DNA of 64,000 nucleotides from an uncultured bacterium (GTDB taxonomy: Bacteria; Zixibacteria; MSB-5A5; CAIYYT01). Below are positions 7,530-22,419 of the stretch, one piece after another (within the stretch, counting starts at the first letter, position 1; each line of letters begins with the position of its first letter). The notes below the pieces were generated by a model. That model had not been told where the DNA came from. It searched no databases and saw nothing but the letters and a program-made list of their open reading frames with translations. Position numbers and translations under genes: made by a program. The stretch is taken from NCBI GenBank assembly GCA_903930455.1, contig CAIYYT010000002.1, positions 6,479 through 70,478 of the forward strand. The letters are read 5' to 3'.

Positions 7530-8126
7530 CTATTTCGATCTTCTTCTTGTGTATCCTGCCACCCCGACCATGCCCAATCCTAACAGTATCAGTGTCACCG
7601 GCTCAGGGACAACACCGCTTTGGCTCGACACGCTCACCTGGTAGTCCTCCACCTCTCCAGTGAAGTAGTCTCCTGTTGGCGTCAATGGGCCATCATAGGT
7701 GATGCGGGCGCGCATCCAGGTGTCTCCCAGTAAGGCATCGGTGGGTACCGTAAAGCTTGGTGTCAGGGTTGTCATGCCGTTGTCGAACCATTGATCACTC
7801 AAACTGAACATCTGCTCGTTGTCGGCAAATACTTTGTCTTGGTTCCAGTCGATCCAGATCGACGCCCACTCATTCGATCCAACGTCAAAGAAGTTGTTGA
7901 GGGATACCTCTACTGATAGGTCGGCTGTTTGGCCTAGCCAGAAGGAGGGTGGATGGGTTATTCCGTCGGGAGTGCCGCCATCCTGGCCGAACCATTCTGA
8001 CAGGTAGTCTGGATCATCCAAGTGTGCGGCTGAGCCGTAACCGATCGCGCTAGAATACGACAAGCCCCAGCACGCGGCTGGAAGAAGCATGATGATCATT
8101 AACGTGAGAAGATGAGTGTTGCGCAT
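7530..8126 (-). CDS. PEP-CTERM sorting-domain protein (secreted, 198 aa from the internal ATG at 8126; the longer ORF to 8342 is unlikely).
   Basis: C-terminus VVPEPVTLILLGLGMVGVAGYTRRRSK* is a PEP motif, then a TM helix, then an Arg-rich tail. ATG at 8126 is preceded by AAGGAGAG and followed by a signal peptide (MRNTHLLTLMIIMLLPAACWG). Confidence 0.8.
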   Translation of the reverse strand: MRNTHLLTLMIIMLLPAACWGLSYSSAIGYGSAAHLDDPDYLSEWFGQDGGTPDGITHPPSFWLGQTADLSVEVSLNNFFDVGSNEWASIWIDWNQDKVFADNEQMFSLSDQWFDNGMTTLTPSFTVPTDALLGDTWMRARITYDGPLTPTGDYFTGEVEDYQVSVSSQSGVVPEPVTLILLGLGMVGVAGYTRRRSK

Positions 8127-8626
8127 AAACTCTCCTTGTCCCGGTGGAACCGATAGTTGTGAATCGTTTATTGTCTCCGAAGAGTGAAGAAAGTGCGAAT
8201 CGAGTCCAAAGCTGGCACTCGTCTCGCGATCCTGCAAGTATACTCTCAATGTCCCAAATCCCCGTAAAACCACACATTTTGTCGCCAGCGTGGAACTTGA
8301 CAAAAAACGCAGTGCCCTAGTTTCGGGCGGACAAGACGACAAGAAACATCTTTACCCATAAAAAGATATGCGGGTCTACGCAATAGTCAATGGAGATCAA
8401 TACGATAAAATTGTGTACAAATTACGTATCGTAAATACGTAACAGCAATCAATCGGAGGTTGGAGGTTCGAGACACCATCCGAGATGTACATCCATCACT
8501 GTGCGCTAGCGCAAGTGTTCGTGGCAGTCATTTTGTCGCTAACTTGAAGAGCCTTTGCGTAGGAGGAAAACACTTCGGGGGTTAGACGATCACGTGATTT
8601 CAATCGGGGTTGTTACCATTCTCTGA

Positions 8627-8671
8627 AGAATCTTGGAATCGTCGTCATTGACTGTGTGATTCCAAGATTCT
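8627..8671. repeat. Perfect 14-bp inverted repeat (agaatcttggaatc ... gattccaagattct) with a 17-nt spacer, about 80 bp downstream of the HerA-like gene stop. Candidate terminator, operator or island-boundary site.
   Basis: Read directly: 8627-8640 is the exact reverse complement of 8658-8671. Confidence 0.5.
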
Positions 8672-8751
8672 CTTTATCCGGGGTTTGAAATGGCTTGTTG
8701 TTGGGGTATTCGTGGGTTTTGGCCTTGGAAGCAGTGAAATAGGTTCGTCAT

Positions 8752-10728
8752 TCAAAGTTTGACAAGTTGCTGAACTGAGGTGAGCAGAACCCTTGATTGT
8801 TCAAAATCAGTCGTGAGTTGGTTCTGGATCTGGATTAGGCATTCTGGTGTTGTTGCCATGATGATTATTGATTCGAAGTCCTTCTTCAGGTTCTTTTCGA
8901 GGTTCTTTTTCCAGTCTGATTTGCCGGTTTCGATTTCTACTGCTGTTCGTTTGCCGTCTTTTTCGATGACGATGTCTGTGTAGCCGTTCACTGGTTCTTC
9001 GATGAGGACTTTGTATCCCAAAGTTTCATAGTGTTCGGCCACTTTCTGTTTCCAGAATTTGTGTTCGAGTCCTTCGTTGAATCGCACTGGCGGCTTCTGG
9101 TGTCCGGATTGTGATAGCTGTTGCCAGCCGTCTTGGGTGATGTCGAGGAGTACCATTCTTCCGCTTTTTGTCAGTATGCTGACTGGTTCGATCAGTTGTT
9201 TCTCGATTAGGGATTTCTTGATGGTGTCGCCGTTTCTTCTGCTGACTCTCAATCTTCTGTAGCGTTCTACGACTCCCGAGAAAGGATGACTGGCGATCTC
9301 GAGCAGTAGTGCCTGTTCTCGTTCGTTGAGTTTCGCGGTGAAATCCTTTTTCGGAGGGGGCTCGATCTGAGCTGCTTGATTGCGGAGAACGTTTCTATAC
9401 GCCATCATGGCCTTGAGTTTTTGGTCGTCTACTGCTCCCTTGGGTACTTTGCAGTGGGAAATGACGACTTCAAATGGCTGAAGCCATCTTCCTTGTAGCT
9501 TTACGACCGCCGCTCCGATGGGTAAGCGGCCGAGTAGTTCGTTGTCTTCGTCCTTCATCAGCATAGCCGCAGCAACAGCATTGACGTCGAGTCGGTGTTT
9601 CAAGTTCATCGTGATGGTAGTGTAGGAGTTGCCCAATGCGGGTATGGAGATCAAGCTGGGGTGTTGGTCGACGAGGACTATGGCTTCGCCGAGTTCTCTG
9701 ATTTCCCTCAAGATGGTGTCGGTTACTGCTTCTCCTCCTGATCCTCCGGGCTTTTTGAGTAGTATGTGGTGTGCTTCTTCGATGAAGATGACGTGTTTGA
9801 AGCACTCCCTGTCCGGCTGGACTAGGCGATAGTGGTGTATCCAGAGAAGCATGGATTCGATGATCAGGTTCTTGTCATTGTTGGTCAAAGCATCAAGCTC
9901 AAGAATAACGTTTCTGTCAAGTAGGCTTGCCAAGTTTGGCTGGCTGGAAGTGTTGACTACTTCGCCCATGGGGCCAAAGCAGATGGACTTGATTCCTCTC
10001 ATGGTGGAGTCCATCCAGAGCGCCTTTCTGCCCTTGACCGGGTTGTCCTCAAGCCACTTCAAAACGTCTATGAAGGTGGGGTACTTCTGGGGGGTGCCCT
10101 CGTAAACACCAAATTGCTCGTAAACTGCATTCAATGCCTCCTGGAGCAAGAACATGACTCCCTCACCCAAGTAATAGGCGCCGGCGATGATCTCGATCAG
10201 TTTCTTGAGCCAGACTTTGGGATCAGTGCCCGTTGGAGGAATCAAGGGGTTGAAAACCATGGGGGAGGTGTTTCTACCAACAGTGTACACCAATATACTC
10301 TCGTCAGTCATGGCTAAGAGGTCTCGGTAGTTGCGTTTCCAGTCAAAGATCAAGAATGGCTTCTTCCTTGCCAAAAGGCTCTTGAGTAGAATGAAGACCG
10401 TGTTGGTCTTACCAGCACCACTTCTTCCAAAGATGGCTGTGTGCTGTATCCATTCGTCTTCCCGCAAGCCAAACTGGTGGTAGTTTCGTCCTGAGTAGTG
10501 GATTGTTCCGATGGGGTATTCGCCGTGGGCGGTGTCCTTTGGCGGGACTGAGAGATAGGTTTCGGGGCTGTCGACTGTCGAGCCGAGGCGTTTTACTGCC
10601 ATGAGCCGTATTGCTGCTTCGATGTCTCTTCTGCCGTCTTGGTCTTCGGTGAGGTAGGCGAGGTAGTACTGGTCGGCTTTCTTGCCGATGAGTGGTTTCA
10701 ATTGTCTGCAGAGTTCCTGGACGTCCAT
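8752..10728 (-). CDS. HerA/FtsK-superfamily (DUF87-like) ATPase fused to a C-terminal winged-helix and PD-(D/E)xK (Hjc/Mrr-like) nuclease-like domain. An alternative TTG start lies at 10734.
   Basis: Walker A FGRSGAGKTNT. Walker B HVIFIEEAHHIL. HerA-type downstream motif LVDQHPSLISIPALGNSYTTITMNLKHRLD. C-terminal ...NEREQALLLEIASHPFSGVVERYRRLRVSRRNGDTIKKSLIEKQL (wHTH-like) and GYTDIVIEKDGKRTAVEIETGKS (GxxD...E.K nuclease core). Its start lies 2 nt after the upstream gene's TGA. Confidence 0.8.
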   Translation of the reverse strand: MDVQELCRQLKPLIGKKADQYYLAYLTEDQDGRRDIEAAIRLMAVKRLGSTVDSPETYLSVPPKDTAHGEYPIGTIHYSGRNYHQFGLREDEWIQHTAIFGRSGAGKTNTVFILLKSLLARKKPFLIFDWKRNYRDLLAMTDESILVYTVGRNTSPMVFNPLIPPTGTDPKVWLKKLIEIIAGAYYLGEGVMFLLQEALNAVYEQFGVYEGTPQKYPTFIDVLKWLEDNPVKGRKALWMDSTMRGIKSICFGPMGEVVNTSSQPNLASLLDRNVILELDALTNNDKNLIIESMLLWIHHYRLVQPDRECFKHVIFIEEAHHILLKKPGGSGGEAVTDTILREIRELGEAIVLVDQHPSLISIPALGNSYTTITMNLKHRLDVNAVAAAMLMKDEDNELLGRLPIGAAVVKLQGRWLQPFEVVISHCKVPKGAVDDQKLKAMMAYRNVLRNQAAQIEPPPKKDFTAKLNEREQALLLEIASHPFSGVVERYRRLRVSRRNGDTIKKSLIEKQLIEPVSILTKSGRMVLLDITQDGWQQLSQSGHQKPPVRFNEGLEHKFWKQKVAEHYETLGYKVLIEEPVNGYTDIVIEKDGKRTAVEIETGKSDWKKNLEKNLKKDFESIIIMATTPECLIQIQNQLTTDFEQSRVLLTSVQQLVKL

Positions 10729-10730
10729 TT

Positions 10731-11462
10731 TCAATCATTGATCAGTTTTTGTCTGTTCGCTTGGGTGTCGATCTGCTGCTTTAGCTCGAGCAACTGCCCT
10801 TGCAGCCGGCTGACGTCTCGCCAGCAGGCGACTTGTTCAAAGCGCTTTTCTTGTTCGAAGGTGATCAGTTCCTTTTCGAAGAAGGATTTGCGCTTGTCAA
10901 TGACTGGCAGTGCTCCGAGCTCGAAAACGTCGAGTTGATCCAAGACTGAATTGGCACGACTGATTCGTCCGTCAATCTCATAAAGATTGCTGTCACGGAT
11001 GGAGAGGCGCTCGTAGATCTGCTCCAAAATACCCTTGGAGGAGTTCAGCAGTACTTCCTTCTTGGAATCAAGAAACCTATCAATAGGATCATTTGCCTTG
11101 ACGATGGAATCGAGACCAGGATTATCACTGGCCAACTTTGGACTTGCGACTGGCAGGTAGTGTTCATCGACGCCGAGAAGATACGGGTAGCCGAGTAGTC
11201 TTGAACAAGTTGAGAAAATTTGTGGAGCTGTATCTAAAACGAGTTTCTCGTGTCCCATGGGGTTGTAAGGATTGACATAGTTGAAGATCATGGTTACCAC
11301 CTGAAATGTCTTGACTATCCAGTGGTAATCAGCGCAAGTATATAAATGTTCCGATTTCGCAGTCTTTCGAACGATATGGACGAGTTTTTCCATCGCGTGA
11401 ACACCGAACGGTTCAGAGCAGACCGGCCTGAGGTACTCAGCAGCACTAGCAAGCATTGGCAC
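10731..11462 (-). CDS. Hypothetical protein, partner of the HerA-like ATPase (operonic, coupled). The true start may be the internal ATG at 11291 (186 aa), which is preceded by AGGTGG.
   Basis: ORF with a coiled-coil-like C-terminus (...RLQGQLLELKQQIDTQANRQKLIND). The internal ATG at 11291 sits in the motif CAGGTGGTAACCATG (strong SD + ATG). No recognisable family. Confidence 0.6.
   Translation of the reverse strand: MPMLASAAEYLRPVCSEPFGVHAMEKLVHIVRKTAKSEHLYTCADYHWIVKTFQVVTMIFNYVNPYNPMGHEKLVLDTAPQIFSTCSRLLGYPYLLGVDEHYLPVASPKLASDNPGLDSIVKANDPIDRFLDSKKEVLLNSSKGILEQIYERLSIRDSNLYEIDGRISRANSVLDQLDVFELGALPVIDKRKSFFEKELITFEQEKRFEQVACWRDVSRLQGQLLELKQQIDTQANRQKLIND
11278..11370. repeat. About 90-bp repeat, copy 1. 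It overlaps the 5' region of ORF 10731..11462 and contains a TATATA-like box, an AGGTGG SD and the ATG. It is nearly identical to 14608..14700.
   Basis: By-eye alignment: tagttgaagatcatggttaccacctgaa[a/t]tgtcttgactatccagtggtaatcag[c/a]gc[a/g]agtatataaatgtt is shared, with 3-5 mismatches over about 80 bp. Confidence 0.7.
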
Positions 11463-11647
11463 CGCGGCAGATTAACCGATTGTCAATAGCCGCTGTCAAT
11501 CCTCATGGCAATCCCGCTAGTTTCGAAGAAAGGCTTCTCTGAAAACATAACTGACGAATGCAGCAATGTTGCGAACGGAGATTTGCCCAACGCAACAGCA
11601 ATCAGGCGGAAAGACTGGACCTGCCGATTACCTCCGCAAAATGCGGG

Positions 11648-14323
11648 CTATCTCAGCAGCAGCATTTTGTTGGTTTCCGATGCGTTTCCGGCCTTCAACC
11701 GGTAGAAATAGATTCCGCTGGCCACCAAACGCCCCCAATCATCTGTTCCATCCCAAGTGGTTGTATATGAGCCCGCATTCTTCGACTCATCGATAAGCAT
11801 TCGGACCTTTCGGCCGAGATTATTGAAAATAGTTATGGAGACGTGAGAGCGGCCTAGAATGCTATATTCAATTATCGTCGCTGGATTGAAAGGGTTCGGG
11901 TAATTCTGAGAAAGCCTCGCAGATTCTGGCAGCGGCTGCAATCCGTCATCTATCACGTCCGTGGCACTTCCTTTGAACCACCGCGCAAGATGGGCTGACA
12001 CTTTCCCCCCAGCTATTGTAAATCTTCCTCCCGCGATCAGATCATTGCCATAGGTTGTGAGAGCAGAAACGAAACCGTTCATCCCTGAACCGAGCGGTGA
12101 CCAAATAGTGTCATCCCATGCAGCAATATAGCTGGCTGTGACTTCTCCTGCTGACCAAAATTTTCCACCTGCAATCAACCTGTTCCTATGGACCGCTAAT
12201 GCGGAGACATATCCACCCATCCCTGAGCTCAAGGAGGACCAAGAGTTTCCGTCCCAAGCAGCTATGTATCTGACCAGGTTGTTTCCTCCTCCTCCCGCTG
12301 TCTCAAACTCTCCTCCAGCAATCAGCTTGTTGTTGAAGACGGTGAGGGCATTGACAGCGAAGTAATACCCACCCGTCCCTGAGCCAAGTGACGTCCAAGA
12401 AACGCCATCCCAAGCTGCGATGCCGGCTCGAGGAACACCCCCAGCAATGTTGAAATATCCTCCGACAATCAGCTCCCTGTCATAGATCGCCAGGGCACGG
12501 ACTTCGCCATTTGTCCCAGAACTGAGCGGAGACCATGAGCTGCCATCCCAGGAAGCAATAAAACTAGAGGCTACGCCCCCCTCCCACGCAAGCAATCCGC
12601 CCGCGATCAACTTGTCGTTGTAGACCGTGAGAGCATAGACGGGGCCATCCATTCCTGAGCCGAGGGTCGACCAAGAGTTGCCGTCCCAGGCGGCAATGTA
12701 ACCGACGCTGACCCCGCCTGCTGAGTGAAAACTCCCCCCCGCTATCAGCTTCTGATTATAGACAGTGAGAGCATTTACGCTTGGTCGACCATAGTTGGCG
12801 CTCATTCCTGGGCCGAGCGATGACCAGTTAGTGCCGTCCCAAGACGCGATGCAATTGACCCTGATACCTCCCGCCATGATGAACTCTCCCCCTACGATAA
12901 GCTTGTCATCATAAATTGTGAGAGCATAGACTGGACCATCCATTGCAGTCCCTAGCGGCGTCCAAGAAGTACCATCCCATCCAGTAATGTTATGGGTAGC
13001 GAAATCTCCTGCATTCTGGAATTGTCCCCCAGCGACCAATTTGCCGTCATAGGACGTGAGGGCCAACACCATGCCTGAAGTTCCCTGGCCCAGTGGTGAC
13101 CAAGATGTACCATCCCAACTGGCGATGTTCTGGGTCGAGATCCCCCCCGCATTATAGAATTTACCTCCGGCGATCAGTTTGTCATCATAGGACGTGAAGG
13201 CAAGCACCATGTCAGTAGTTCCCTGGCCCAGTGGTGACCAAGATGTACCATCCCATCCAGCAATATTATAGGTAGCGACACCTCCCGCTCCCCAGAACAA
13301 CCCTCCAGCGATTAACTTGTCATGATAAACCGTGAGAGTTCGGACAATACCATAATCGCTTATCCCTGTGCCGAGAGTTGACCAAGACGTGCCATTCCAA
13401 GCAGCGATTCTGCTGGCCGGGTCGCCTCCGGCCTCGGAAAAGTTTCCTCCCGCGATAAGACTACCGTTGTAGACTGTAAGAGCCTCGACAACCGAATTCA
13501 TCCCCGACCCAAGCGGCGACCAAGAACTACCATCCCAGGAAGCAATGTGGCGAACCGAATCGCCGTCAACCACGGAGAAGTTTCCTCCCGCGATAAGCCG
13601 CCCGCTATAGACCGTGAGACTTGCGACGACCGAATTCATCCCCGATCCAAGTGGCAACCAGGAGCTGCCGTCCCAAGCTGCGATGTGGTAAGCCTCAATG
13701 CCTCCTGCATTGGTAAAGAACCCTCCGGCTACTAGCCTATTACCATAGACTGCGAGAGCATAGACCTCGCCGTTCATCCCTGTGCCGAGCGTTGACCAGG
13801 AAGTGCCGTTCCAGGCAGCGATTCTGCCGGCAAAAACGGTGCCTGCCAGAGCGAAGCCACCTGCGACGATCAACTGACCATTGTAAACAGCAAAAGCGTA
13901 AACCAGACTATCGACCCCTTGAAATGATGGTGAAATGCTGTTATCCCAATAGATGTCATCAGGGTGATCGGTTGGCGAAGCAGGAGAAGCAGGGCGAAAC
14001 ACTGGCTGACCTGTGGAATTGTCAAATGCGGAGGTGAAACCTCTCAAGTCCAACGGTCCCTGATAACCTGAACGCTGTGCAGCTTCAAGTTCGAATCGTC
14101 CGTCAGGCTTGAGAAACTCCCCGATGCTTCTGCCGGAGGCCTTGTCTGTGTCATCAGTTGCATTCGCCTTGAAGAACCCGCAGCCATCCCATTGCCCCAT
14201 GTTTTTCGTGAATGCCAGTGGCATCTTTTTGAGTGTTTCAGCGGTTATCTGTGATGCTTGCACTTTGTACGCGAACAATAGGCTACAGAGCCCAAGCGCG
14301 GTGAATAGGATCGCTTTTTTCAA
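11648..14323 (-). CDS. Secreted beta-propeller-type repeat protein (14 or more tandem ~50-aa WDG(T/S)SWSxLGxG...YALxVYxxxLIAGGxF repeats) with a T9SS C-terminal sorting domain. TTG start.
   Basis: N-terminal signal MKKAILFTALGLCSLLFA. Long tandem repeat array. C-terminus LSQNYPNPFNPATIIEYSI...GIYFYRLKAGNASETNKMLLLR (T9SS CTD). TTG start with GGGAGG SD; the N-terminus is shared with 14798..17164. Confidence 0.9.
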   Translation of the reverse strand: MKKAILFTALGLCSLLFAYKVQASQITAETLKKMPLAFTKNMGQWDGCGFFKANATDDTDKASGRSIGEFLKPDGRFELEAAQRSGYQGPLDLRGFTSAFDNSTGQPVFRPASPASPTDHPDDIYWDNSISPSFQGVDSLVYAFAVYNGQLIVAGGFALAGTVFAGRIAAWNGTSWSTLGTGMNGEVYALAVYGNRLVAGGFFTNAGGIEAYHIAAWDGSSWLPLGSGMNSVVASLTVYSGRLIAGGNFSVVDGDSVRHIASWDGSSWSPLGSGMNSVVEALTVYNGSLIAGGNFSEAGGDPASRIAAWNGTSWSTLGTGISDYGIVRTLTVYHDKLIAGGLFWGAGGVATYNIAGWDGTSWSPLGQGTTDMVLAFTSYDDKLIAGGKFYNAGGISTQNIASWDGTSWSPLGQGTSGMVLALTSYDGKLVAGGQFQNAGDFATHNITGWDGTSWTPLGTAMDGPVYALTIYDDKLIVGGEFIMAGGIRVNCIASWDGTNWSSLGPGMSANYGRPSVNALTVYNQKLIAGGSFHSAGGVSVGYIAAWDGNSWSTLGSGMDGPVYALTVYNDKLIAGGLLAWEGGVASSFIASWDGSSWSPLSSGTNGEVRALAIYDRELIVGGYFNIAGGVPRAGIAAWDGVSWTSLGSGTGGYYFAVNALTVFNNKLIAGGEFETAGGGGNNLVRYIAAWDGNSWSSLSSGMGGYVSALAVHRNRLIAGGKFWSAGEVTASYIAAWDDTIWSPLGSGMNGFVSALTTYGNDLIAGGRFTIAGGKVSAHLARWFKGSATDVIDDGLQPLPESARLSQNYPNPFNPATIIEYSILGRSHVSITIFNNLGRKVRMLIDESKNAGSYTTTWDGTDDWGRLVASGIYFYRLKAGNASETNKMLLLR

Positions 14324-14352
14324 AATGCCTCCCGGCGAAGTATGATGACTTA

Positions 14353-14388
14353 CTGAACAAGGATAATTAATATGGCTGAATTGTCAAG
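14353..14388 (-). promoter_or_regulatory. Sigma70-like promoter candidate for the 11648..14323 gene: -35 TTGACA (14388..14383), 17-nt spacer, -10 TATCCT (14365..14360). It is conserved upstream of the paralog at 14798..17164.
   Basis: Hexamers read on the minus strand. The about 85-bp upstream/leader region 14324..14420 is about 90% identical to 17165..17260. Confidence 0.45.
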
Positions 14389-14489
14389 GCAAAGCGTCGC
14401 CGATGTACATCCAAGGTCACCTACCGTAGTCGTCGAGGGGCGTTTAGTGATTGTGGGTGTTGGTTGTGGGGTGAGAAGGGGCCGTTTTG

Positions 14490-14700
14490 GGCTCCTTCCC
14501 TGTGCTGTCGGCTATGCTTCAACGTTCAGATATGCCCCTATTGCGGTTACTTCTCATCTGATGAGCGCCCCAGCCAGTGACATCAGGTCGTAAGTGTCGT
14601 TGTCGTAGTTGAAGATCATGGTTACCACCTGAATTGTCTTGACTATCCAGTGGTAATCAGAGCGAGTATATAAATGTTGTGATTCAGCAGTGGTGACACG
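14490..14700 (-). pseudogene. Hybrid gene fragment. The 5' end resembles the N-terminal region of ORF 10731..11462 (...HLYTRSDYHWIVKTIQVVTMIFNY) and the 3' end resembles the C-terminus of ORF 17342..18721 (DNDTYDLMSLAGALIR*EVTAIGAYLNVEA). An in-frame stop interrupts it.
   Basis: Minus-strand translation of 14490..14700 compared with ...HLYTCADYHWIVKTFQVVTMIFNYVNPYNP (gene at 10731..11462) and ...NNDIYDLTSLARAIIKGEITQAGAYLNVEA* (gene at 17342..18721). Confidence 0.5.
14608..14700. repeat. About 90-bp repeat, copy 2 (see 11278..11370). It abuts the decayed C-terminal fragment of a paralog of 17342..18721.
   Basis: By-eye alignment with 11278..11370. Confidence 0.7.
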
Positions 14701-14797
14701 CCACTGGGTGTGCCGTACAGCTTCGATGACTTGTCAAAAAGAAAAACCGGAAGCCGCCCTCTAAACTCCCGGTCATCAGTTCACTCAGCGTCCTTGC

Positions 14798-17164
14798 TTA
14801 CTTGCACCCCGCACACGGTGCCAGTCCGCCAGAGAATATGTACGCAATCAGATACACCGCGTCCGAAATATCAACCGACCCACTGCAATTGGCGTCTCCG
14901 GATTGATATGGGCAAGGCTCTGGGCCACCCCCAAAGATATAAGCAATCAGATATACAGCGTCTGAGATATCAACGCTCCGACTGCCGTCAGCGTCACCGC
15001 AGAGCTGTGGTTCGCTGAAGGCACCAAACTTGGTCACGCATGCGAGATACGGACCGTTGCCTGCCGACTGGTATGGATTGAGAAGCGGAAAGTCCGCCGA
15101 CCAAGTCATTCCTGTTACATAGGCGTTGCCCCCATTGTCAATTGCGATGTGTGGACAGTAAGCTCCTTCCCCGTCCATGCCACTGCCGCCGAGGTAGGTG
15201 CTGTATTCAAGCGATCTTCCGCATGGTTTCAGTTTGGTCACGAAAAAGTCCCAGTCACCATGATTCATTGACTGGTATGGATTCTGAATCGGAAAGAGAG
15301 ATGACTTTGTTGCTCCCGCCACGTAGGCATTTCCGACATTGTCTACAGCAATCCCAAATCCTTTGTCATAATCTCCTCCACCAAGGTAGGTGCTATATAA
15401 CAGACTGCTGCCAGAACTTGAGAGTTTGCATACAAAAGCATCGCAATAGCCACCTGCAAACGTCCCCTGATAGGGATTCTGAGTCGGGAAGTTGGAAGAC
15501 CATGTTTCCCCAGTCACATAGGCATTTCCGGTGCCATCGACTGCGATGGCGTGTCCTGCATCCGCCTCTCCTCCACCGAGGTAGGTGCTGTATATAAGAC
15601 TGTTCCCGGCACTGCTCAGCTTGGTTACGAAGGCATCGAATGGGCCACCCTGCAATGTTGCTTGCAACGGATTCTGAGTCGGAAAGTCTGTTGATACAGT
15701 CCGCCCCGTAACATAGGCATTATCGTTGGCATCGATCGCAACTCCATAGCCCTCGTCTTCTCCTAATCCGCCGAGATATGTACTGTAAGCCAGTGTGCTA
15801 CCGGTCGGATTCAGTTTCGTGATGAAGGCGTCGACTAAGCCACCACGAAATGTGGATTGGTAGGAATTTTGGGTGGGGAAATCTCCCGCATAGGTAAGGC
15901 CCGTTACAAAGGCGTTGCCGTTGCCATCGACAGCGATCCCATAGCTTTCGTCATAATCACGGCCGCCTAGGTAAGTGCTGTAGACGAGTGCATTACCGTC
16001 CGCATTTAGCTTGGTAACGAAAGCATCATAATAGTGATGATTCAAGGTTGACTGGAACGGATTCTGCGTCGGAAAGTCCATCGAACCAGTACCACCCGTA
16101 ACGTAGGCGTTGCCACCGTTGTCAACTGCGATGCCCCAAGCGAATTCAAAGTCTTCACCACCGAGGTAGGTGCTATATATCAGACTGTTCCCAGTGGTTG
16201 AGAGCTTTGTTACAAAGACGTCCTGGTTGCCATGGTACGTCTGATAGGGATTCTGAGTCGGGAAATCGATCGACTGGGTCCAGCCCGTTACATAAGCATT
16301 ACCGGAGTTGTCTACTGCAATGCTAAAGGCTTCGTCATAGCCGCTCCCACCTAGCAAGGTGCTATAGATAAGCCCAACATTCAGCGATGTTGATTGCATT
16401 CGGCTCTGATCCGTAGTTTCCAAGGTAACCGTATCCTCTGCTTCTCGCGAAAACAGGGCAGAACCTGAACGCTTATCGTTTGTCGGCCCTGCAAAAGCGA
16501 CTATCACGTCTCCCCACTTGGTTTGCACTAAAAGTGTGCCGCCGGAATCGACCAAAGTCTTTTCGGCGCCTTCGAAGGCTATTTTGACTTGTGCCACATC
16601 TGCTCCCGGCTCCACGATATACGCATACGACGCCTGGCCTGTGCCGTCGCCAGAATATCTTATGTCGATACCGGGATAAATGTCTTTGAGCGTGATCGCT
16701 TCGTAGTTGGGCACATCGGTATGCCATTTCGACGGATCATTACCGATGAAGTAGTTGCACTTGTATTCCAATTGCCCCTCGGCTACAACTTCGGGATTCG
16801 AATTCGCCCCGACGAATTTGGCAGTTAGAATCATCTGCTCGACGGAGTCCCTTTCCTGCGAGAATCGATCAGCCGTGTCAAAGGGGCTAGCGGCGTTCGC
16901 CAGACCAGGCACACTAACTGCACCGCCGCGGTCGATCCGTCTTGTGAATTGGTAGGTCACCCCTTCTTTTGTAAACCACATCGTGGCGCCTCCGGCGCTA
17001 GCGCGGAACAAGACGCGTTCGTCCCACTGGCCCATGTTTTTCGTAAAGGCCAAAGGCATCTTTGCGAGTGTCTTAGTGGTAATTTGTGATGCTTGCACTT
17101 GGAACACGAACAATAAGCTACAAAGTCCTAGCGCGAGCGCAGTGAGTAGGATTGCTTTCCTCAA
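14798..17164 (-). CDS. Secreted SBBP (beta-propeller) repeat protein with two C-terminal dockerin-type repeats. It is a paralog of 11648..14323 at its N-terminus only. TTG start.
   Basis: Signal peptide MRKAILLTALALGLCSLLF. Repeated GxGNAYVTGxTxSxDFPTQNPYQ... units (SBBP-like). C-terminus CGDADGSRSVDISDAVYLIAYIFGGG...GDANCSGSVDISDAVYLIAYIFSGG is a duplicated dockerin-type Ca-binding motif. Confidence 0.9.
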   Translation of the reverse strand: MRKAILLTALALGLCSLLFVFQVQASQITTKTLAKMPLAFTKNMGQWDERVLFRASAGGATMWFTKEGVTYQFTRRIDRGGAVSVPGLANAASPFDTADRFSQERDSVEQMILTAKFVGANSNPEVVAEGQLEYKCNYFIGNDPSKWHTDVPNYEAITLKDIYPGIDIRYSGDGTGQASYAYIVEPGADVAQVKIAFEGAEKTLVDSGGTLLVQTKWGDVIVAFAGPTNDKRSGSALFSREAEDTVTLETTDQSRMQSTSLNVGLIYSTLLGGSGYDEAFSIAVDNSGNAYVTGWTQSIDFPTQNPYQTYHGNQDVFVTKLSTTGNSLIYSTYLGGEDFEFAWGIAVDNGGNAYVTGGTGSMDFPTQNPFQSTLNHHYYDAFVTKLNADGNALVYSTYLGGRDYDESYGIAVDGNGNAFVTGLTYAGDFPTQNSYQSTFRGGLVDAFITKLNPTGSTLAYSTYLGGLGEDEGYGVAIDANDNAYVTGRTVSTDFPTQNPLQATLQGGPFDAFVTKLSSAGNSLIYSTYLGGGEADAGHAIAVDGTGNAYVTGETWSSNFPTQNPYQGTFAGGYCDAFVCKLSSSGSSLLYSTYLGGGDYDKGFGIAVDNVGNAYVAGATKSSLFPIQNPYQSMNHGDWDFFVTKLKPCGRSLEYSTYLGGSGMDGEGAYCPHIAIDNGGNAYVTGMTWSADFPLLNPYQSAGNGPYLACVTKFGAFSEPQLCGDADGSRSVDISDAVYLIAYIFGGGPEPCPYQSGDANCSGSVDISDAVYLIAYIFSGGLAPCAGCK

Positions 17165-17193
17165 GGTGCCTCCCGGCGAAGTATGATGATTTG

Positions 17194-17228
17194 CTGAATA
17201 AGGATAATCAATATGGCTGAATTGTCAA
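17194..17228 (-). promoter_or_regulatory. Promoter candidate paralogous to 14353..14388: -35 TTGACA (17228..17223), 16-nt spacer, -10 TATCCT (17206..17201).
   Basis: Same hexamers in the conserved leader region. Confidence 0.4.
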
Positions 17229-17341
17229 GGCAAAGCGTCGCCACCGTGCCCTCCCTCATGGATCGCTTGCCGTGCTTTCCTAGAGGTGTTTGCTGTGGCG
17301 GGGAGAAGGGGCCCAAAATGGCCCCTTCTTTGTGCTGTGGG

Positions 17342-18721
17342 TTATGCTTCGACATTCAGATATGCCCCTGCTTGTGTGATTTCTCCTTTGATGATGGCTC
17401 TTGCGAGTGAGGTTAGGTCGTAAATGTCGTTGTTGTGGCTGGCTTCGAGTATTGTGTTTCCTCGTAGGTGTTTGGTGGTGTACATGGCGAGGATGAGCTC
17501 TTTTAGGTCGCAGTCGTTGATCACGTTGAATGGGTGTGATTCGCTTAGGCCTGCTGTGGTGTTTATGTAGTGGTTGTGGTTGAAGTAGTCGTCCAGTTCT
17601 GGTTCTTTTTCTCGGTAGACTTTGGCTGCCAGCTTGGCAAGCTTTTCCAACAATTCCTCTTTTCTGCCGGTCATGGCGACTTCGTGGTTTTTGAGCATCT
17701 CTTTGATCATCTCTCCCGAGGCGTTTACTCGTATGAATCCGCCTATGGCGTAGGTGTGTACTCGGTGTTCGGTGAAGGCGGCGTTGGCAGTGCTTGCCTC
17801 TTTTGGGGCGAGGTAGTTGAGGTTGGGGAAGCCGATTTGGAAGTTGCCTTTCTCGATCATCCTTTCGGCTGTTTCGATGTTGACGGTGAAGCAGTATCTG
17901 CCTTTGTCGTGTCGCCAGCGTTCGGCTATTTGTCTTGCTTGTTCTCTGATGGCGTGGCGGGGAACCAGAGATGGTAGCATTCGGATGGTTTCGCCTTTTC
18001 GTGTGCAGGTGTAGATAATGCTCTCCGAGTAGGCGATGTTGCGGTAGCCGTCTGAGCGCATCTGGAAGTGGCTAATTGATTCAGTCAGTTTGAGTTTTCC
18101 TTGGTCGTCGGCGATCTGCCCGAGTACGCTCGCCTGCCTGAAGTTTGTAATCGGCAAGGCCTGACTGATCAGGACGCTTTCTTCATCTTGGAAGTCTTCC
18201 AGGGTGAGTATCTGGCTGAGGTCGTAGCTGTTGATGTCGTTGTAGCCAGAAAGCTTGATCTGCTTGCTCTTGCCCTTCAGGAAGTCCCTGAGCGAGTTGA
18301 AGTCACTGTAAATCCTCGAAAGGAGACTGTAAACTGTTTGGTGAGTCCAGTTGGCTACGAGAGTCCTCTTGGCAATAGCGACCAGCTGCAAGTAGCCGAG
18401 GCCGTCGACGAAATACAAATGGTCGCGGATGTCGGCCAGCATCCTCTCAAACATGGTTCCTTCCCGATAATAAGTTCGTTCAGTTGAGTAATTGATGTCG
18501 TGGCTGTAGCCCAGCTCTTTGAGCTCCGTAATCAATTGATCTGGCGCGTTTAGTCTTTGCAGGGTGGTTTCGATGATGTGGCTTGAGTGGTCGCTGCAGC
18601 CCCAGGGGTGGATGCCTCTTAGCAGGACGTCGGCAAGTGAAACTTCCACGATCTTGAAGGTTAGGCGTTTGAATTCGGGGACTTGCTCGTCTGGTATTAG
18701 TGACAGCTGGATAGTTTGCAT
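17342..18721 (-). CDS. Hypothetical 459-aa protein with a SAP-like motif near its C-terminus. It is the third gene of the vWA-MoxR cluster and overlaps the MoxR gene by 25 nt.
   Basis: ATG start. The segment IKEMLKNHEVAMTGRKEELLEKLAKLAAKV resembles a SAP DNA-binding motif. No other recognisable domain. A decayed paralogous C-terminal fragment lies at about 14490..14607. Confidence 0.7.
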   Translation of the reverse strand: MQTIQLSLIPDEQVPEFKRLTFKIVEVSLADVLLRGIHPWGCSDHSSHIIETTLQRLNAPDQLITELKELGYSHDINYSTERTYYREGTMFERMLADIRDHLYFVDGLGYLQLVAIAKRTLVANWTHQTVYSLLSRIYSDFNSLRDFLKGKSKQIKLSGYNDINSYDLSQILTLEDFQDEESVLISQALPITNFRQASVLGQIADDQGKLKLTESISHFQMRSDGYRNIAYSESIIYTCTRKGETIRMLPSLVPRHAIREQARQIAERWRHDKGRYCFTVNIETAERMIEKGNFQIGFPNLNYLAPKEASTANAAFTEHRVHTYAIGGFIRVNASGEMIKEMLKNHEVAMTGRKEELLEKLAKLAAKVYREKEPELDDYFNHNHYINTTAGLSESHPFNVINDCDLKELILAMYTTKHLRGNTILEASHNNDIYDLTSLARAIIKGEITQAGAYLNVEA

Positions 18722-20211
18722 ACAACTTCACCTCCATTGGCGGTTGATTGGTGATGGTTGGAGATTAGTAATTCGAAGGTCTCGAGGTCCTTCTCGATTG
18801 CTTCTCGGGTCTGCTCGATGTCATTGGGATCAAGGTTTTGCTTTCTGGCGAGCTTGGCAACATGGCTGTAGGCAACGATCTTGGCCAAGTCAGACTGCTG
18901 ATCCAGCAACCCCTCTACCTCCTCGACAAATTCGATGCATTCCCCTTGAAGGTTCGGGATACACTTGCTGGATAGCTTCTCGCCGGAGACCTTGCGGCTC
19001 AAACCCTCCAAAAGCTCCCTGGGAACTGTGCCGGGACGGCGTGCCTCTACTTGCAAAGCCGTATAGGCCAGCAGAGTGATGTCTTGCTCGCCATTGATTA
19101 AGTCATTCCAGGCCTTGGAAGCCGCAAACTCTCCCAGGTTTGATGTGAGTAGGATTTCGGCTTTGCGCATCATGTCTTTGGTCGTGAAGAGCTCGTAGAT
19201 GGTGTTGACCTTTTCCATATTCGAACCCTCAGCGAAAAAGCTACTCAACAGGTCGAAGCAGATCTCCATCTTGTGAACTGCCTCTTCTTTCTTGAGTGAT
19301 TCATCGTTCAAACCGACTGGAATGCTGGATTGGACAACGTAGCGAGCTGACTTGACAAAGTCTGGTATCGTTGTGCTGAGCACTTCGGACTTGGCCAATT
19401 CGATGGCCCGATTGGAGAGGATGTTTCGGTAGATAAAGCCCAGCCTTCTACCATCAAGTGAGATGTCGCCTTTGGATTCCCTCATCAGGAGATCGGCAAA
19501 GCGCGCCAAGAACAAGGAAAGCGTTGAGTACTGCTCTCTTAGGGTGTTGAAGTGTCTTGCTGCGGTGTGGAACATCTGGGTCATCTTCTGACCGATTTCC
19601 TTCACTTCCTGCTTGTCAACTGTGCCACTGGTTTGTCCGTTGTTCCAGACTGAGATGGCAGGAGCATCATCGCCGTTGATGTGTCCGGTGACTTTGATGC
19701 GGTCTGCTTCCTCCATCTGCAAGACATCCGGAGGATAAACAAACAAGGCAAATCGGCCGATCAGTGCTTCGTCGAGTGCCTGGGTGGCTGAGTAGTTCAT
19801 GGGGTTCATGGCTGCCCACACCCATTTGACCTTGGTCTCAAATCCCATGATCTTTCGAGAACGGATAATTTCGAGCCATTTGCTCTGAAGTTCGGGGACG
19901 GCGCGATTGAGTTCGTCTATCAGGACTAGTTCCTTGTCCCAGATGGTGACGTTGCTCGGGACATATTCTACGACTCCCTGTTTCAATTTTTCGATGTTGG
20001 GGAAGCCAAGTATGTCCTCGAACATGCATTTGCTTGCGTCGTAGACGAGTGACTTGCGGTTGAGTGCTTGGCCGATTTTGTTGGCCACGTGGGTCTTTGC
20101 GCAACCATGATTGCCAATCAGTAGTAGCGGGTCGCCTGTCAAGAGCGATGACAGGATTAGGTTTTCGTCTTCGTCTTTCCAGCCGTAGATGCCGAGTGTT
20201 TCGAGTATCAT
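18697..20211 (-). CDS. MoxR-like AAA+ ATPase (AAA_5 family) with a C-terminal extension.
   Basis: Walker A LIGNHGCAKTHV. Walker B with NRA: LVLIDELNRA. Sensor/Arg finger AMNPMNYSATQALDEALIGRF. ATG start with AGGAGA SD. Confidence 0.85.
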   Translation of the reverse strand: MILETLGIYGWKDEDENLILSSLLTGDPLLLIGNHGCAKTHVANKIGQALNRKSLVYDASKCMFEDILGFPNIEKLKQGVVEYVPSNVTIWDKELVLIDELNRAVPELQSKWLEIIRSRKIMGFETKVKWVWAAMNPMNYSATQALDEALIGRFALFVYPPDVLQMEEADRIKVTGHINGDDAPAISVWNNGQTSGTVDKQEVKEIGQKMTQMFHTAARHFNTLREQYSTLSLFLARFADLLMRESKGDISLDGRRLGFIYRNILSNRAIELAKSEVLSTTIPDFVKSARYVVQSSIPVGLNDESLKKEEAVHKMEICFDLLSSFFAEGSNMEKVNTIYELFTTKDMMRKAEILLTSNLGEFAASKAWNDLINGEQDITLLAYTALQVEARRPGTVPRELLEGLSRKVSGEKLSSKCIPNLQGECIEFVEEVEGLLDQQSDLAKIVAYSHVAKLARKQNLDPNDIEQTREAIEKDLETFELLISNHHQSTANGGEVVCKLSSCH

Positions 20212-20456
20212 TGTTTTTTCTCCTATCTTCTTTGCCCCTTTGAGGGCAATGAAAAAGGGGAGATCCTCGCTGATGAGGGTTCTCCCCGTGGTTTAAGTTT
20301 GTTGATGATTGTTAGCTGTTGTTGAATTGAGATGAGTGGAGCTATGGTTTGTGGATGATGTCCCCTTTTCCGTTGCGATGTCGCGCCCCAGTCATGGAGG
20401 AACAGCTGTTAGTGGGGCGGACAGTGATTTGTGGTTTCTTCCTGGTTTTCTCCTTT

Positions 20457-21752
20457 CTATTCGCAGACGTCTGAGAGGTTGACGATGTCGCCGAATTTGG
20501 CAAAGTCCTCGCAGGTGGTTGTGCCGTCGAAGAGGATCGTCAAGGTAACGAGCCCCAAGGCTTTAAGTTGTTTTGACAATTCTTCTGACATGTCGGCGTA
20601 ACCATCGGTAATGATGATTGCCTTTTCGAATCGTCTTTCGAGTATTGATTGGGCTATGCAGTTGAAGTCGGTGCCGTAACTTGTCCTGATTTTGCCTTTG
20701 ATCAGATCTTGCATGGTGGTTTCGACTACTATGTTCGAAAACAGGAACAGCGAGGTGACACTGTTTTTCAGCTTGGATAGGACTCCGATGATATTTGGCA
20801 GGTAATCGTTTACGCTTCCAGAGACGTCAAGGTAGATCGCCAGACCCTTTTCTTCAGAGGTTGGTTTGGATGTGTGGTTGTGGAAGTACCCCGGATAAAA
20901 CCCCGAAGCCAACAGTACCAAGTCGCGTTTGGATGGATACAATGGAATGGGTGAAACTCCCACCCGCTGAACCCGAAAGTACTCCTTGAATCGGTCAAGT
21001 TTGCGCTTGGTCAGAAACTTTTGTAGCAGTACTTTCTTTATTGATAGGTGTGTCTTCAACGCCTCCATAAACAGATCAAGCAGTTCAAGGCTGAATCCGG
21101 CGTTTCTTCCTCCTTTGCCGGCGACGCTGCGCTTCAGGTCTTCGGCGATTTTGGAGAGCAGTTCGTTTGGAAAAGAGGTCTCGTGACTCGATGGGTTTCC
21201 GTCGTGGGAGTGGCTGCCGATCAAGACAACAGTTGATAGTCGTTCGCTTTGGGTCAGGATCTTCAAAGTCTGGATCAACTCTCCAGTCGTGAAATGATCG
21301 TGTTCGTCGTTTTGACTGTATAGCCTTTCGTAGACCTTGCTGTACTTGCCTCGCGACATTTCACTCAAGGGCCGCAGTAGCCCAGGCAGTCCTCGATCCG
21401 GATAAAACTTGCGGAACAGACTGCCGTTGCGGGAATAGTCGGTGTATACTTCGCTGATGACAGCATTGATGATTGCATCAGCAGCAATGTTCTCCAGCTC
21501 ACCATTCTCATAGATGAAGTGGCAGAACATTGGATGCAGCAGCTCGTGAAAGACCAGGCTGAACAAGTCTTCTTTACATGTGATATGCTTGTTGATGAAC
21601 CCTGGATTGTACGACAGTTTGCCGTCAACGGTGATCGCCGCCGTCGGAATCCTGTCATCTTCAACGGTTTCGTTAACGAAGCCGGCGACGAAGCTGTCAA
21701 AGCCGAGAGCATCTTTGAGTACTTCTCTCACGGTTTCGAGATTGATTTTCAT
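20457..21752 (-). CDS. DUF2201-type protein: N-terminal putative metallopeptidase-like domain (HExxH) plus a C-terminal vWA domain. This is the vWA partner of the MoxR ATPase.
   Basis: PTAAITVDGKLSYNPGFI...LVFHELLHPMFCHF...NIAADAIINAVI fits the DUF2201_N pattern (AATDGxxLYYNP...HExLH...WNxAxDxAIN). C-terminal IYLDVSGSV is a MIDAS DxSxS motif, followed by ...AIIITDGYAD. ATG start with AGGAGGT SD. Confidence 0.85.
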   Translation of the reverse strand: MKINLETVREVLKDALGFDSFVAGFVNETVEDDRIPTAAITVDGKLSYNPGFINKHITCKEDLFSLVFHELLHPMFCHFIYENGELENIAADAIINAVISEVYTDYSRNGSLFRKFYPDRGLPGLLRPLSEMSRGKYSKVYERLYSQNDEHDHFTTGELIQTLKILTQSERLSTVVLIGSHSHDGNPSSHETSFPNELLSKIAEDLKRSVAGKGGRNAGFSLELLDLFMEALKTHLSIKKVLLQKFLTKRKLDRFKEYFRVQRVGVSPIPLYPSKRDLVLLASGFYPGYFHNHTSKPTSEEKGLAIYLDVSGSVNDYLPNIIGVLSKLKNSVTSLFLFSNIVVETTMQDLIKGKIRTSYGTDFNCIAQSILERRFEKAIIITDGYADMSEELSKQLKALGLVTLTILFDGTTTCEDFAKFGDIVNLSDVCE

Positions 21753-22232
21753 GGTTACCTCCTTTCAAGGCACAAAATGAAAAATGCCCGATGGTCTGCT
21801 TGAGCAATCCGTCAGGCGGTTGATTTGCGTTCTTCTCGATGAATTCATCGCGAAGAGCCATTGATGAGACTTCTCAGAAAAGACTAAAACGCACTCCGAG
21901 AGCACAACGAAACAGGACACAGTGGAGCGAGATATCTACTTAGCGCCGCCTTTGCTTTCGCTCGTCGCCCAGCGACGAATACAAGGGCAACACGGTGGAA
22001 ACTGAAGTTCAATTCACTCTCACCAAGACAGGCAAAGGTGAAGACGATTGTTAGTTCTCATTTAGTCTGAATATCAGATCAACTCTTGCGAGGATCACAA
22101 ACCAGATTGTTACTATCACCCAGTGGGAATGAGCCAATGCTTATAAATCTTTCGCTTATTAAAACTTAGCTCCATTTGAAAAATTAACAAACCCGAACAA
22201 ACAGAAGCTCCAAGAGCCGGCAAGCAAACGAT

Positions 22233-22325
22233 GAGGAAAAAGGAAAAGAAGGAGAAGGAAGAAAAGAGAAAAGGGAAAAGAGGGAGAGAAAAAAGAGAGA
22301 AGGAGAAAGGGAGAAAAGGAAAAAA
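22233..22325 (+). repeat. 93-nt perfect homopurine (GA-only) tract on the plus strand. Purine-rich bias extends over about 22228..22360. Low-complexity, potential triplex/H-DNA-forming element.
   Basis: No C or T between 22233 and 22325. The ORFs called across it (22116..22376, 22159..22404) translate to F/S/L low-complexity strings and are judged spurious. Confidence 0.9.
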
Positions 22326-22419
22326 CGAGAAACGAAGAAAATGAACTAAAAGCAACGAAGCAACGGACCACATCAAAACAATACATCCAGAACTGAATCA
22401 ACAAAAAGGAATCTAGGTC

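Follow-up and report, generated by a model that had tools for sequence, protein, structure and literature searches.

The region 11272-17441 of the window, by which we mean the whole 64-kb stretch of DNA that was analysed, holds two genes for predicted exported proteins, B and C, lodged between two conserved operons. From high to low coordinates, the genes and features of this region and its surroundings are as follows.

17342..18721, minus strand: gene A, an open reading frame of 459 aa, which closes the conserved left operon
17165..17341, minus strand: intergenic part of the first copy of a ~430-nt repeat, with a terminator hairpin (17305-17329), a promoter-like TTGACA-16-TATCCT (17228-17201) and a GGGAGG Shine-Dalgarno sequence before a TTG start
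14798..17164, minus strand: gene B, cassette 1, with a signal peptide, DUF7948, six SBBP propeller repeats and a dockerin (Pfam)
14692..14797, minus strand: ancestral spacer between B and D, which contains a terminator-like hairpin and T-run (14774-14745), collinear with the interval between the dockerin gene and D in relatives
14606..14691, minus strand: D', second copy of a ~90-nt element, with the D promoter/5'UTR block, AGGTGG, an ATG (14619-14617) and D codons 1-5
14512..14605, minus strand: A', a degraded copy of the ~32 final codons of an EVTA-type A gene, with an in-frame TGA (14556-14554) and the original TAG stop (14514-14512)
14324..14511, minus strand: intergenic part of the second copy of the ~430-nt repeat, with a terminator hairpin (14474-14498), a promoter-like TTGACA-16-TATCCT (14387-14360), a Shine-Dalgarno sequence and a TTG start
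14159..14323, minus strand: B-type leader of gene C, ~55 codons comprising a signal peptide and PLAFTKNMGQWD (the start of DUF7948), fused in frame to an unrelated body
11648..14158, minus strand: body of gene C, cassette 2, a Rax2/DUF5122-type beta-propeller of 46-aa repeats with a T9SS C-terminal sorting domain
11364..11647, minus strand: foreign 3' flank of the C body, in place of the conserved terminator and upstream region that precede D in relatives
11272..11363, minus strand: first copy of the ~90-nt element, with the D promoter/5'UTR block, an AGGTGG Shine-Dalgarno sequence, ATG 11291 and the first five codons (MIFNY) of D
10731..11291, minus strand: gene D, 186 aa from ATG 11291, which opens the conserved right operon
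8752..10734, minus strand: gene E, a HerA/FtsK-superfamily ATPase (DUF87; Pfam DUF87 5e-11)

The conserved left operon encodes a 431-aa VWA-like protein, a MoxR-type AAA ATPase and A. Gene A has 86 homologues, each adjoining a MoxR-type gene; it belongs to no Pfam family, and its AF2 model is confident and finds no fold match in the PDB. The true start of D is ATG 11291, not the GTG at 11462 that opens the maximal reading frame; its relatives, of 187-190 aa, likewise start with MIFNY, and profile searches gave no family match for it.

Two repeats tie the cassettes together. The shorter one spans 92 nt (11272-11363 versus 14600-14691, an offset of 3328) and is 90% identical (83/92), rising to 95% (70/74) in a core at 11278-11351 versus 14606-14679; within the window it is found by BLASTN at E = 7e-30, and there is no third copy in the 64 kb. 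The initial annotation had placed this repeat at 11278..11370 and 14608..14700 with about 95% identity, which is right for the existence of the repeat and for its core, but those intervals are 2 nt out of register and their literal ungapped identity is 20%. It had also correctly recognized copy 1 as the 5' end (AGGTGG-ATG) of the gene that precedes the HerA-like ATPase. Alignments show that the promoter/5'UTR block is kept upstream of D in L003, L004, L006, L008 and L027-L036, and these ~75 nt show the same conservation throughout the relatives, including those whose D protein is only 66-70% identical, which points to a regulatory region under constraint. Because the block is conserved everywhere, the identity of the 90-nt repeat is uninformative on its age, and the earlier view that a junction repeat had stayed nearly identical after duplication is not supported. 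Nor does the element behave as an independently mobile sequence, given that each of its ten metagenome matches precedes D or forms part of the joint described below, with no MITE- or REP-like copies in unrelated contexts among these ten matches or in the 64 kb. An Rfam scan of 10500-18000 at E<=1 returned two chance-level matches only; the conserved promoter blocks are therefore not known RNA elements.

The longer repeat (14187-14606 versus 17022-17436; 76% identity over 428 nt, E = 4e-78) comprises the A 3' end, the terminator hairpin, the promoter-like site, the GGGAGG Shine-Dalgarno sequence, the TTG start and the first ~55 codons of the secreted-protein gene, and its copies share exact runs of 33 and 23 nt. 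It is longer than the parallel between 14324..14607 and 17165..17437 that had been described before, is not of low complexity and lies far beyond chance. The promoter-like site scores 10/12 in both copies, and the loop of the copy 1 hairpin is inverted with respect to copy 2 and to the relatives. The promoter, terminator and signal-peptide functions of both units are predictions from sequence.

Between the two cassettes, D' and A' form a joint of 180 nt (14512-14691) with the pattern GGTGGTAACCAYGATCNTCARCYAYRACAACGAC. From ATG 14619 the hybrid frame reads MIFNY and then DNDTYDLMSLAGALIR up to the TGA at 14556-14554, followed by EVTAIGAYLNVEA up to the TAG at 14514-14512, and downstream of MIFNY it aligns with the last ~32-33 codons of gene A. 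The in-frame fusion of copy 2 to decayed C-terminal codons of A, as first proposed, is thus confirmed by alignment with the last 33 A codons, and the corresponding end of gene A (17342-17441) represents the source type of the fragment. The breakpoint falls within 14612-14605, at an imperfect microhomology (CAACTA in D, CAGCCA in A), and the topology is that of a tandem-duplication joint, in which the distal end (D 5') is fused to the proximal end (A 3'). The same joint occurs in three other metagenome contigs with different cargo (L031, L032 and L033). The breakpoint hexamer comes in two variants, AACTAC in the window and L031 and AGCCAC/T in L032 and L033, which are two transitions apart; the differences could represent mutations, conversion tracts or separate events. 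All four A' fragments are of the EVTA allele type and three of the four share an ATG>ACG change, whereas the resident A of the window is of the EITQ type. With 75% identity to that resident gene, as opposed to 87% to the A gene of L027, the A' of the window was not made from its present neighbours.

Gene B is a DUF7948-SBBP-dockerin protein, with Pfam matches to DUF7948 (1.6e-44, 153 bits), SBBP repeats (1.2e-63, 211 bits) and a type I dockerin (Dockerin_1 at 1.2e-4 and 22.6 bits, just under the 22.9-bit cutoff, in a C-terminus that is kept in all B-like relatives). This type is the usual occupant of the slot in close relatives, with B-like genes following A in L004, L027, L031 and L033, and between the B stop and D' the sequence runs collinear with that of L003 (88% over 192 nt) and L004 (83% over 167 nt). 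Literature on SBBP, dockerin and Ignavibacteria and on duplication joints yielded nothing specific.

Gene C, in turn, matches Rax2 at 2e-27 and carries a T9SS tail in the form of a type A sorting domain (TIGR04183, 39 bits against a cutoff of 23; PF18962, 27.1 against 27). Other T9SS-tailed proteins are encoded nearby (1589-7303). Its leader is identical to the B N-terminus at 41 of 57 residues, and at the nucleotide level it is closer to the leaders that follow the same joint in L031-L033 (88-93%) than to copy 1 (81%). An alignment of the two secreted proteins breaks at about residue 55: homology is limited to aa 1-55, and beyond it the repeat families differ (65-aa SBBP versus 46-aa Rax2/DUF5122). 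The homology of C to its own large family begins at about aa 50-62, its nearest homologues are at most 56% identical, and these relatives bear signal peptides of their own. The 284 nt downstream of C are unrelated to the conserved pre-D region, the match to L003 and L004 being limited to the last ~99 nt before and into D. These comparisons show C to be an in-frame chimera in which a B-type promoter and signal peptide were placed on a foreign body with its own 3' flank. Since B and C share only aa 1-55, and since C has its own family and a foreign 3' flank, the C body is a replacement rather than a diverged copy, contrary to the initial suggestion that two passenger genes had diverged.

How the units are related can be judged from other genomes. 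The unduplicated state, A followed by one DUF7948/SBBP/dockerin gene and D, for which the initial annotation had called, is found in L004/L007 and in L027. Independent body replacements that left B-type remnants are seen in L003 (136 aa at the 5' side and a dockerin remnant at the 3' side) and in L021 (a leader remnant with a stop), and one contig, Ga0209777_10004354, has four genes in the slot. Copies 1 and 2 of the window are 75.6% identical to each other, as against 77-83% between each of them and the orthologous regions of other variants; they are sisters in 0 of 300 bootstraps of a neighbour-joining tree and have just 2 shared-derived sites. The A-3'/leader tree has the shape of a star and contains no supported clade of the four copies next to a joint, so that the case for a single origin is drawn from the breakpoint and the EVTA signature that these have in common rather than from phylogeny.

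We propose, with a probability of about three in four, that two cassettes form an array at 11272-17441, in a hypervariable cargo slot with a conserved operon on either side, and that they are separated by the inherited scar of an old tandem duplication. The duplicated unit would have run from the A 3' end through the promoter, the leader and the secreted-protein gene to the D 5' end, and its joint would have been made by an illegitimate join at the imperfect microhomology, linking D codon 4-5 to about codon 427 of A. The scar would be old and inherited, as other variants of the block have the same joint between different cassettes, and the allele lineage from which the second unit stems would not be that of the resident first unit. 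Cassette 1, with B, would retain the ancestral order A-B-intergenic-D'. In cassette 2, an unrelated propeller/T9SS gene with its own 3' flank would have taken the place of the stretch that begins near codon 56 of a B-type gene and reaches to some 75-88 nt before the D start, and the resulting gene C would use the promoter, TTG start and signal peptide of the B type. We infer that the D'/A' joint arose only once. Each cassette is presumably transcribed from its own promoter copy and insulated by the A' and B terminators, and later gain, loss and exchange of cassettes probably proceeded by recombination between the repeated ends, which share exact runs of 33/23 nt and 28/26 nt. Products of such recombination, with B or C deleted, were not seen among the contigs that encode the exact proteins. 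The single state predicted by this proposal, in which A is followed by leader::C and D, was not found: the exact C protein occurs in the B-C context only and the homologues are at most 56% identical, and neither is informative.

The strongest competing explanation, which we nonetheless regard as unlikely, holds that the four joints formed independently, be it by circularisation and re-integration of a cassette, by slippage at the CA.C.A microhomology or by a recombinase acting at the A 3' and D 5' ends. It would account for the two breakpoint variants and for the fact that the joint copies are not a clade, and single-crossover integration of a circular A'..D' fragment would yield exactly such a structure. 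Isolated or doubled A-3' fragments in the distant MAGs L024 and L025 could be taken in the same sense, though they are too short or weak to interpret. However, no recombinase, att-like core or inverted repeats were found at the joint, the breakpoint variants differ by a mere two transitions, the A' fragments share their allele type and, in three cases, ATG>ACG, and the mismatch between A' and the resident A argues against formation from the present neighbours.

Less probable still is the model of the initial annotation, in which an A-X-D segment was duplicated in tandem within this lineage and the two X copies diverged to B and C while the junction repeat remained near-identical. What stands of it is the footprint of a tandem duplication as such: the topology of the joint fits, the single-gene state exists in relatives, and over the 75-nt promoter/5'UTR sub-region copies 1 and 2 are the most similar pair (93%). 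What falls is the recency of the event and the divergence of the passengers in situ. Homology, which a recent in situ tandem duplication would leave along the whole unit, is confined to two terminal stretches, ~430 nt on the 5' side and 92 nt on the 3' side, with none detectable between B and C past aa 55 and with a foreign flank behind C; the copies were never sisters; and the EVTA type of A', against the EITQ of the resident A, together with the same joint in L031-L033, speaks against a recent and private duplication, just as the conservation of the D block in all relatives deprives the near-identical repeat of its weight. A graded series of B-like to C-like bodies is implausible for different folds, and we consider this model largely refuted. 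Because the scar is old and common to other genomes, the locus reflects ordinary cassette shuffling and not a recent duplication with diverged copies.

An assembly artefact, in which the assembler merged two strain variants, A-B-D and A-C-D, or linked them into a chimera at the shared repeats, has next to no chance of being correct: the repeats do sit exactly where assemblers misjoin, and some contigs break near conserved genes (L021, L022 and L026), but a misjoin cannot make a novel D'/A' fusion with mutations of its own, repeats of 76-90% identity are too diverged to collapse, and 18 contigs, assembled by two programs (scaffold-style and MEGAHIT-style k141) from several samples, agree in gene order at 99.9-100% identity.

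The proposed array of cassettes around an old scar has parallels among known arrangements. Tandem-duplication joints that arise in bacteria by illegitimate (microhomology) recombination show a novel distal-proximal fusion, a short imperfect microhomology and unit-flanking direct repeats that are able to recombine later. All three features recur here; however, the joint of the window is persistent (17-25% diverged), common to several variants and flanked by units with unrelated genes, rather than recent and unstable. In the orphan-module arrays of polymorphic toxins (the "displaced tips" of Rhs and CdiA), cassettes with unrelated bodies retain a piece of conserved upstream sequence. Here, too, the retained upstream piece is homologous sequence through which a downstream cassette might move to the expressed position or be lost, but there is no toxin/immunity pair, and the conserved piece is the 3' end of a neighbour gene with a promoter and a leader instead of the N-terminal body of one large protein. 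As each cassette in our case is a complete gene with a predicted promoter, a start codon and a signal peptide of its own, none should be silent. The morons and cargo hotspots known from phages and other mobile elements are self-contained transcription units of variable content between conserved genes. The likeness lies in the succession of promoter-like site, gene and terminator-like hairpin and in content that differs between close relatives, whereas an IMG/VR scan gave no relative of A, and PHROG matches are weak. With integron cassette arrays the locus shares tandem exchangeable genes and a recurring boundary sequence; yet profile searches of the block proteins at 7530-25500 gave no integrase or recombinase family, no attC-type imperfect inverted repeats lie at the cassette boundaries (the inverted repeats there are terminator hairpins only), each cassette has its own 10/12 promoter-like site, and the boundary is the scar of a gene fragment.

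Taken together, we argue that the locus is a clean case study and not a new kind of system. It provides a traceable example of how a variable region builds up, in which one old illegitimate join became a reusable boundary and homologous ends permit stacking and exchange, and of how a foreign gene may be made expressible and, by prediction, exportable by taking over a resident promoter and signal peptide in frame. Two warnings come with it, namely that high identity of a short repeat can mean regulatory constraint instead of recent duplication, and that neighbours that look paralogous can be unrelated genes sharing a captured head. A bolder idea, to which we give little credence, is that the D' promoter, the A' 3' end with its terminator, the promoter and the signal-peptide leader together make up a portable homology module, with which a family of VWA-like/MoxR/A ... 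D/HerA-like blocks, possibly mobile or conflict-related, would stack, swap and re-head secreted or surface beta-propeller proteins through recombination. If this were true, the slot would be a cassette-based diversification system for exported proteins, and C would exemplify the capture of a foreign gene that received the shared leader as its new head.

A more interesting lead may lie in the flanking block itself (VWA-like, MoxR, A, D and HerA-like), an uncharacterised set of genes that occurs widely across phyla. Its representative here stems from an Ignavibacteria-like genome, measures ~14 kb and ends near 8500. In the beta-propeller class of MoxR-vWA-centric ternary conflict systems, the defining feature is a beta-propeller C-terminally fused to the vWA component (Kaur et al. 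2020, PMC7159879). The block resembles these systems in that a MoxR-type AAA ATPase has as neighbours a weakly VWA-like protein and a third, conserved one, with beta-propellers among the variable neighbours. In contrast to them, its propellers are separate proteins, predicted to be secreted (by signal peptide and dockerin or T9SS tail), whose place is taken in L003 and L008 by cargo other than propellers, and a vWA-fused propeller is absent, since the 431-aa protein, which has weak DUF2201_N/VWA-like matches, contains no propeller and A matches neither vWA nor propeller. The MoxR-type protein scores 25.9 bits for bpMoxR (PF20030), under the cutoff of 27, and exceeds the Pfam cutoffs of AAA_5 and AAA_3. 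In PADLOC, PHROGs and NCBIfam, the HerA, CedD, VirB4 and mad8 matches of gene E are all sub-threshold, the 431-aa protein matches a PHROG labelled "HNH endonuclease", and beyond these matches no block protein received a defence-system or phage assignment. One distant relative sits in a defence-island-like setting, which is a further likeness to the ternary systems. The flanks around the block differ between L001 and L002, which suggests that the block may be mobile.

The structure between gene A, which follows a MoxR gene, and the 186-aa gene D is an instance of known processes, in that it combines a duplication scar with a cargo hotspot and with gene capture by fusion, and its history is unusually readable. 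The interval contains minus-strand genes only, which are read in this order:

18721-17342, minus strand: A (459 aa), first, followed by an intergenic region
17164-14798, minus strand: B, secreted-protein gene of cassette 1, followed by the intergenic region that holds the joint
14323-11648, minus strand: C, secreted-protein gene of cassette 2, followed by an intergenic region
11291-10731, minus strand: D
10734-8752, minus strand: E, a HerA/FtsK-type ATPase gene

When the region was searched for repeats and compared with the whole window by BLASTN, exactly two non-trivial repeat pairs emerged. The short one (11272-11363 versus 14600-14691; 83/92 identical, E = 7e-30) corresponds to the 90-bp repeat of the initial annotation, which is real and has a 74-nt core 95% identical in register, but whose coordinates in that annotation lay 2 nt out of register. 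Copy 1 comprises the region upstream of D, an AGGTGG Shine-Dalgarno, the ATG at 11291 and five codons. MIFNY is also where relatives of D begin, with lengths of 187-190 aa, which makes the longer GTG ORF an artefact of the upstream flank. Copy 2 (D') passes directly into a decayed copy (A') of the last ~32 codons of A, and the in-frame fusion claimed earlier is borne out, the hybrid frame reading MIFNY, DNDTYDLMSLAGALIR, a stop, EVTAIGAYLNVEA and a further stop. At this illegitimate D-5'/A-3' joint the CAACTA of D and the CAGCCA of A form an imperfect microhomology. The long repeat (14187-14606 versus 17022-17436; 76% over 428 nt, E = 4e-78) continues beyond A' through a terminator hairpin, a promoter-like site (TTGACA-16-TATCCT in both copies, 10/12 matches), a GGGAGG Shine-Dalgarno, a TTG start and ~55 codons, in agreement with the parallel promoter, leader and signal-peptide stretches noted before. 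The array is made up of two self-contained units, and the leader of C is a captured one.

Two minor features of the duplicated intergenic region may be mentioned here. First, the loop of the A terminator hairpin is ATTTTG in copy 1 (17305-17329) versus CAAAAT/CAAAAC in copy 2 (14474-14498) and in relatives (the L032 joint and L022); the copy 1 sequence is the exact reverse complement, an inversion of the loop that leaves the stem as it was. Second, the public assemblies annotate genes on two antisense ORFs of 73 and 65 aa (14372-14593 and 17213-17410, plus strand); these run across the terminator and promoter blocks and are unlikely to be real.

The same gene order recurs in 18 contigs that come from several samples and represent two styles of assembly, which excludes an assembly artefact. 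An ENA metagenome scaffold is identical to the window, whose closest genome matches are Ignavibacteria MAGs. A conserved block (~8500-11363 and 17300-22900) encloses a slot, the A-to-D interval, whose content varies between relatives.

Slot contents in related loci
L004/L007, L027: one DUF7948/SBBP/dockerin gene, the unduplicated state
L008: a 257-aa non-secreted protein
L006: other DNA
L003: a 136-aa B-type 5' remnant followed by a CBM96/metallophosphatase/T9SS gene and then by a B-type dockerin 3' remnant
L021: a leader remnant that contains a stop codon and, behind it, a C-like propeller that has a signal peptide of its own

The initial annotation had proposed a tandem duplication after which the two passengers diverged. 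This proposal is right in part: the repeats, the joint and the unduplicated state (A, one DUF7948/SBBP/dockerin gene, D) are all real, but B and C are not diverged copies, and the repeat copies flanking them are not sisters. B consists of DUF7948, six SBBP repeats and a dockerin, and C of a Rax2/DUF5122-type propeller and a T9SS sorting domain; their internal repeat periods are 195 and 138 nt, and BLASTP aligns their N-termini (41/57 aa identical) and finds no other similarity. C belongs to a very large family (nearest members at most 56% identical). Since only its N-terminus is B-like, its alignment to the family begins at about residue 50-62, and its nearest relatives bear their own, different signal peptides, C is an in-frame chimera in which the promoter, TTG start, signal peptide and first DUF7948 residues (PLAFTKNMGQWD) are B-type and the body is foreign. 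The remnants in L003 and L021 show that such body replacement within B-type genes has occurred repeatedly.

From the B stop to D' (14797-14600) the sequence is collinear with what separates the dockerin gene from D in relatives (L003, 88% over 192 nt; L004, 83% over 167 nt). True D retains only the last ~99 nt of this conserved upstream region, and the 284 nt between it and the C stop found no match in comparisons with relatives. Hence A-B-intergenic-D' is the old order, and the C body came with its own 3' flank, displacing all sequence between about codon 56 of a B-type gene and a point ~75-88 nt before the D start.

As to kinship, over the A 3' end, intergenic region and leader the two copies are 75.6% identical to each other, and either is 77-83% identical to L003 and L021; they have two derived sites in common (other pairs, 4-8) and were sisters in none of 300 bootstrap trees. 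A' is of the EVTA allele type, which all four joints share with the true A genes of L027 and L005; EITQ is the type of the resident A, as in L003 and L021. A' is 87% identical to the A gene of L027 and 75% to the resident A. For the leader, copy 2 is 88-93% identical to those associated with the other joints and 81% identical to that of copy 1. Nor did the near-identity of the short repeat, previously read as persisting since the duplication, prove specific to the two copies: the block AACATTTATATACT..CTGATTACCACTGG.TAGTCAAGACA..AGGTGG is near-invariant upstream of D in every relative, even where the D protein is just 66-70% identical, and the near-identity reflects constraint acting on a promoter or 5'UTR.

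A search of JGI metagenomes with a 22-nt pattern from this block found 10 loci. In seven the block precedes a true D; in three (L031, L032, L033) it is joined to a fragment of the A 3' end at the position seen in the window, after which come terminator, promoter and leader as in the window, then other cargo. One 16.8-kb contig has four secreted-protein genes in the slot and one such joint. The D' start codon is ACG in these three joints and ATG only in the window, so that the 21-codon hybrid ORF is not conserved. The tree of the A 3'/leader region is otherwise star-like, the joint copies forming no supported clade; it is from the common breakpoint and allele signature that we infer a single origin of the joint.

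We propose that an old tandem duplication made the joint, and that the repeated ends afterwards supplied homology for gain, loss and exchange of cassettes among block variants. Exact runs of 33 and 23 nt could still allow the array to resolve to A-C-D, and runs of 28 and 26 nt to A-B-D; neither product was seen among the contigs examined.

The left operon of the block encodes a 431-aa protein (20457-21752), a MoxR-type AAA ATPase (18697-20211) and A. Weak, sub-threshold matches of the 431-aa protein to DUF2201_N (putative metallopeptidase) and VWA-like domains (DUF2201, VWA_CoxE) suggest a MoxR-VWA pair; the PHROGs label of its relatives, "HNH endonuclease", looks doubtful. The block falls outside the published beta-propeller MoxR-vWA ternary class because its vWA component has no fused propeller (PMC7159879). 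A (17342-18721) has a confident AlphaFold model (pLDDT 88) with no fold match in the PDB, and matched no family in Pfam, NCBIfam or PADLOC. The MoxR-A pair is spread over many phyla (MAGs of Ignavibacteria, Zixibacteria, Thermodesulfobacteriota, Nitrospiraceae, Verrucomicrobiota and Hydrogenedentota), and A is an uncharacterised conserved MoxR partner. In a 2.5-Mb MAG contig (L014:11815-16700) the pair is followed by ORFs resembling Cas3, Cas5 and Cas8c by eye, which, if correct, would place a distant relative of the block in a defence island. A 3' fragments, weakly matched on short contigs, occur twice, 1.4 kb apart, in a Nitrospiraceae MAG (L024:53-208 and 1604-1726) and singly, in isolation, in Hydrogenedentota (L025:10001-10156), and may be scars of the same type in these distant lineages.

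Loci L001 and L002 have 15.5 kb in common at 99.9% identity and unrelated DNA beyond 22904, which hints either at mobility or at a boundary of recombination. A sharp limit of conservation at ~22899-22904 recurs when L001 is compared with L002, L003, L005 and L008, with the 15.5 kb on its right and, on its left, unrelated DNA with different Replic_Relax genes and chromosomal neighbours; a contig from another sample stops exactly at window position 8707. Together, these findings suggest a mobile or recombining block of ~14 kb. Its immediate surroundings encode a T9SS-tailed Lectin_C/Laminin_G/Ig-repeat protein of 1904 aa (1589-7303) and a GEVED/PEP-CTERM protein (7530-8342); another GEVED/PEP-CTERM gene and one for Bac_transf are located further on. 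Sorting signals of both the T9SS and the exosortase type therefore appear to be in use by the host in this neighbourhood.
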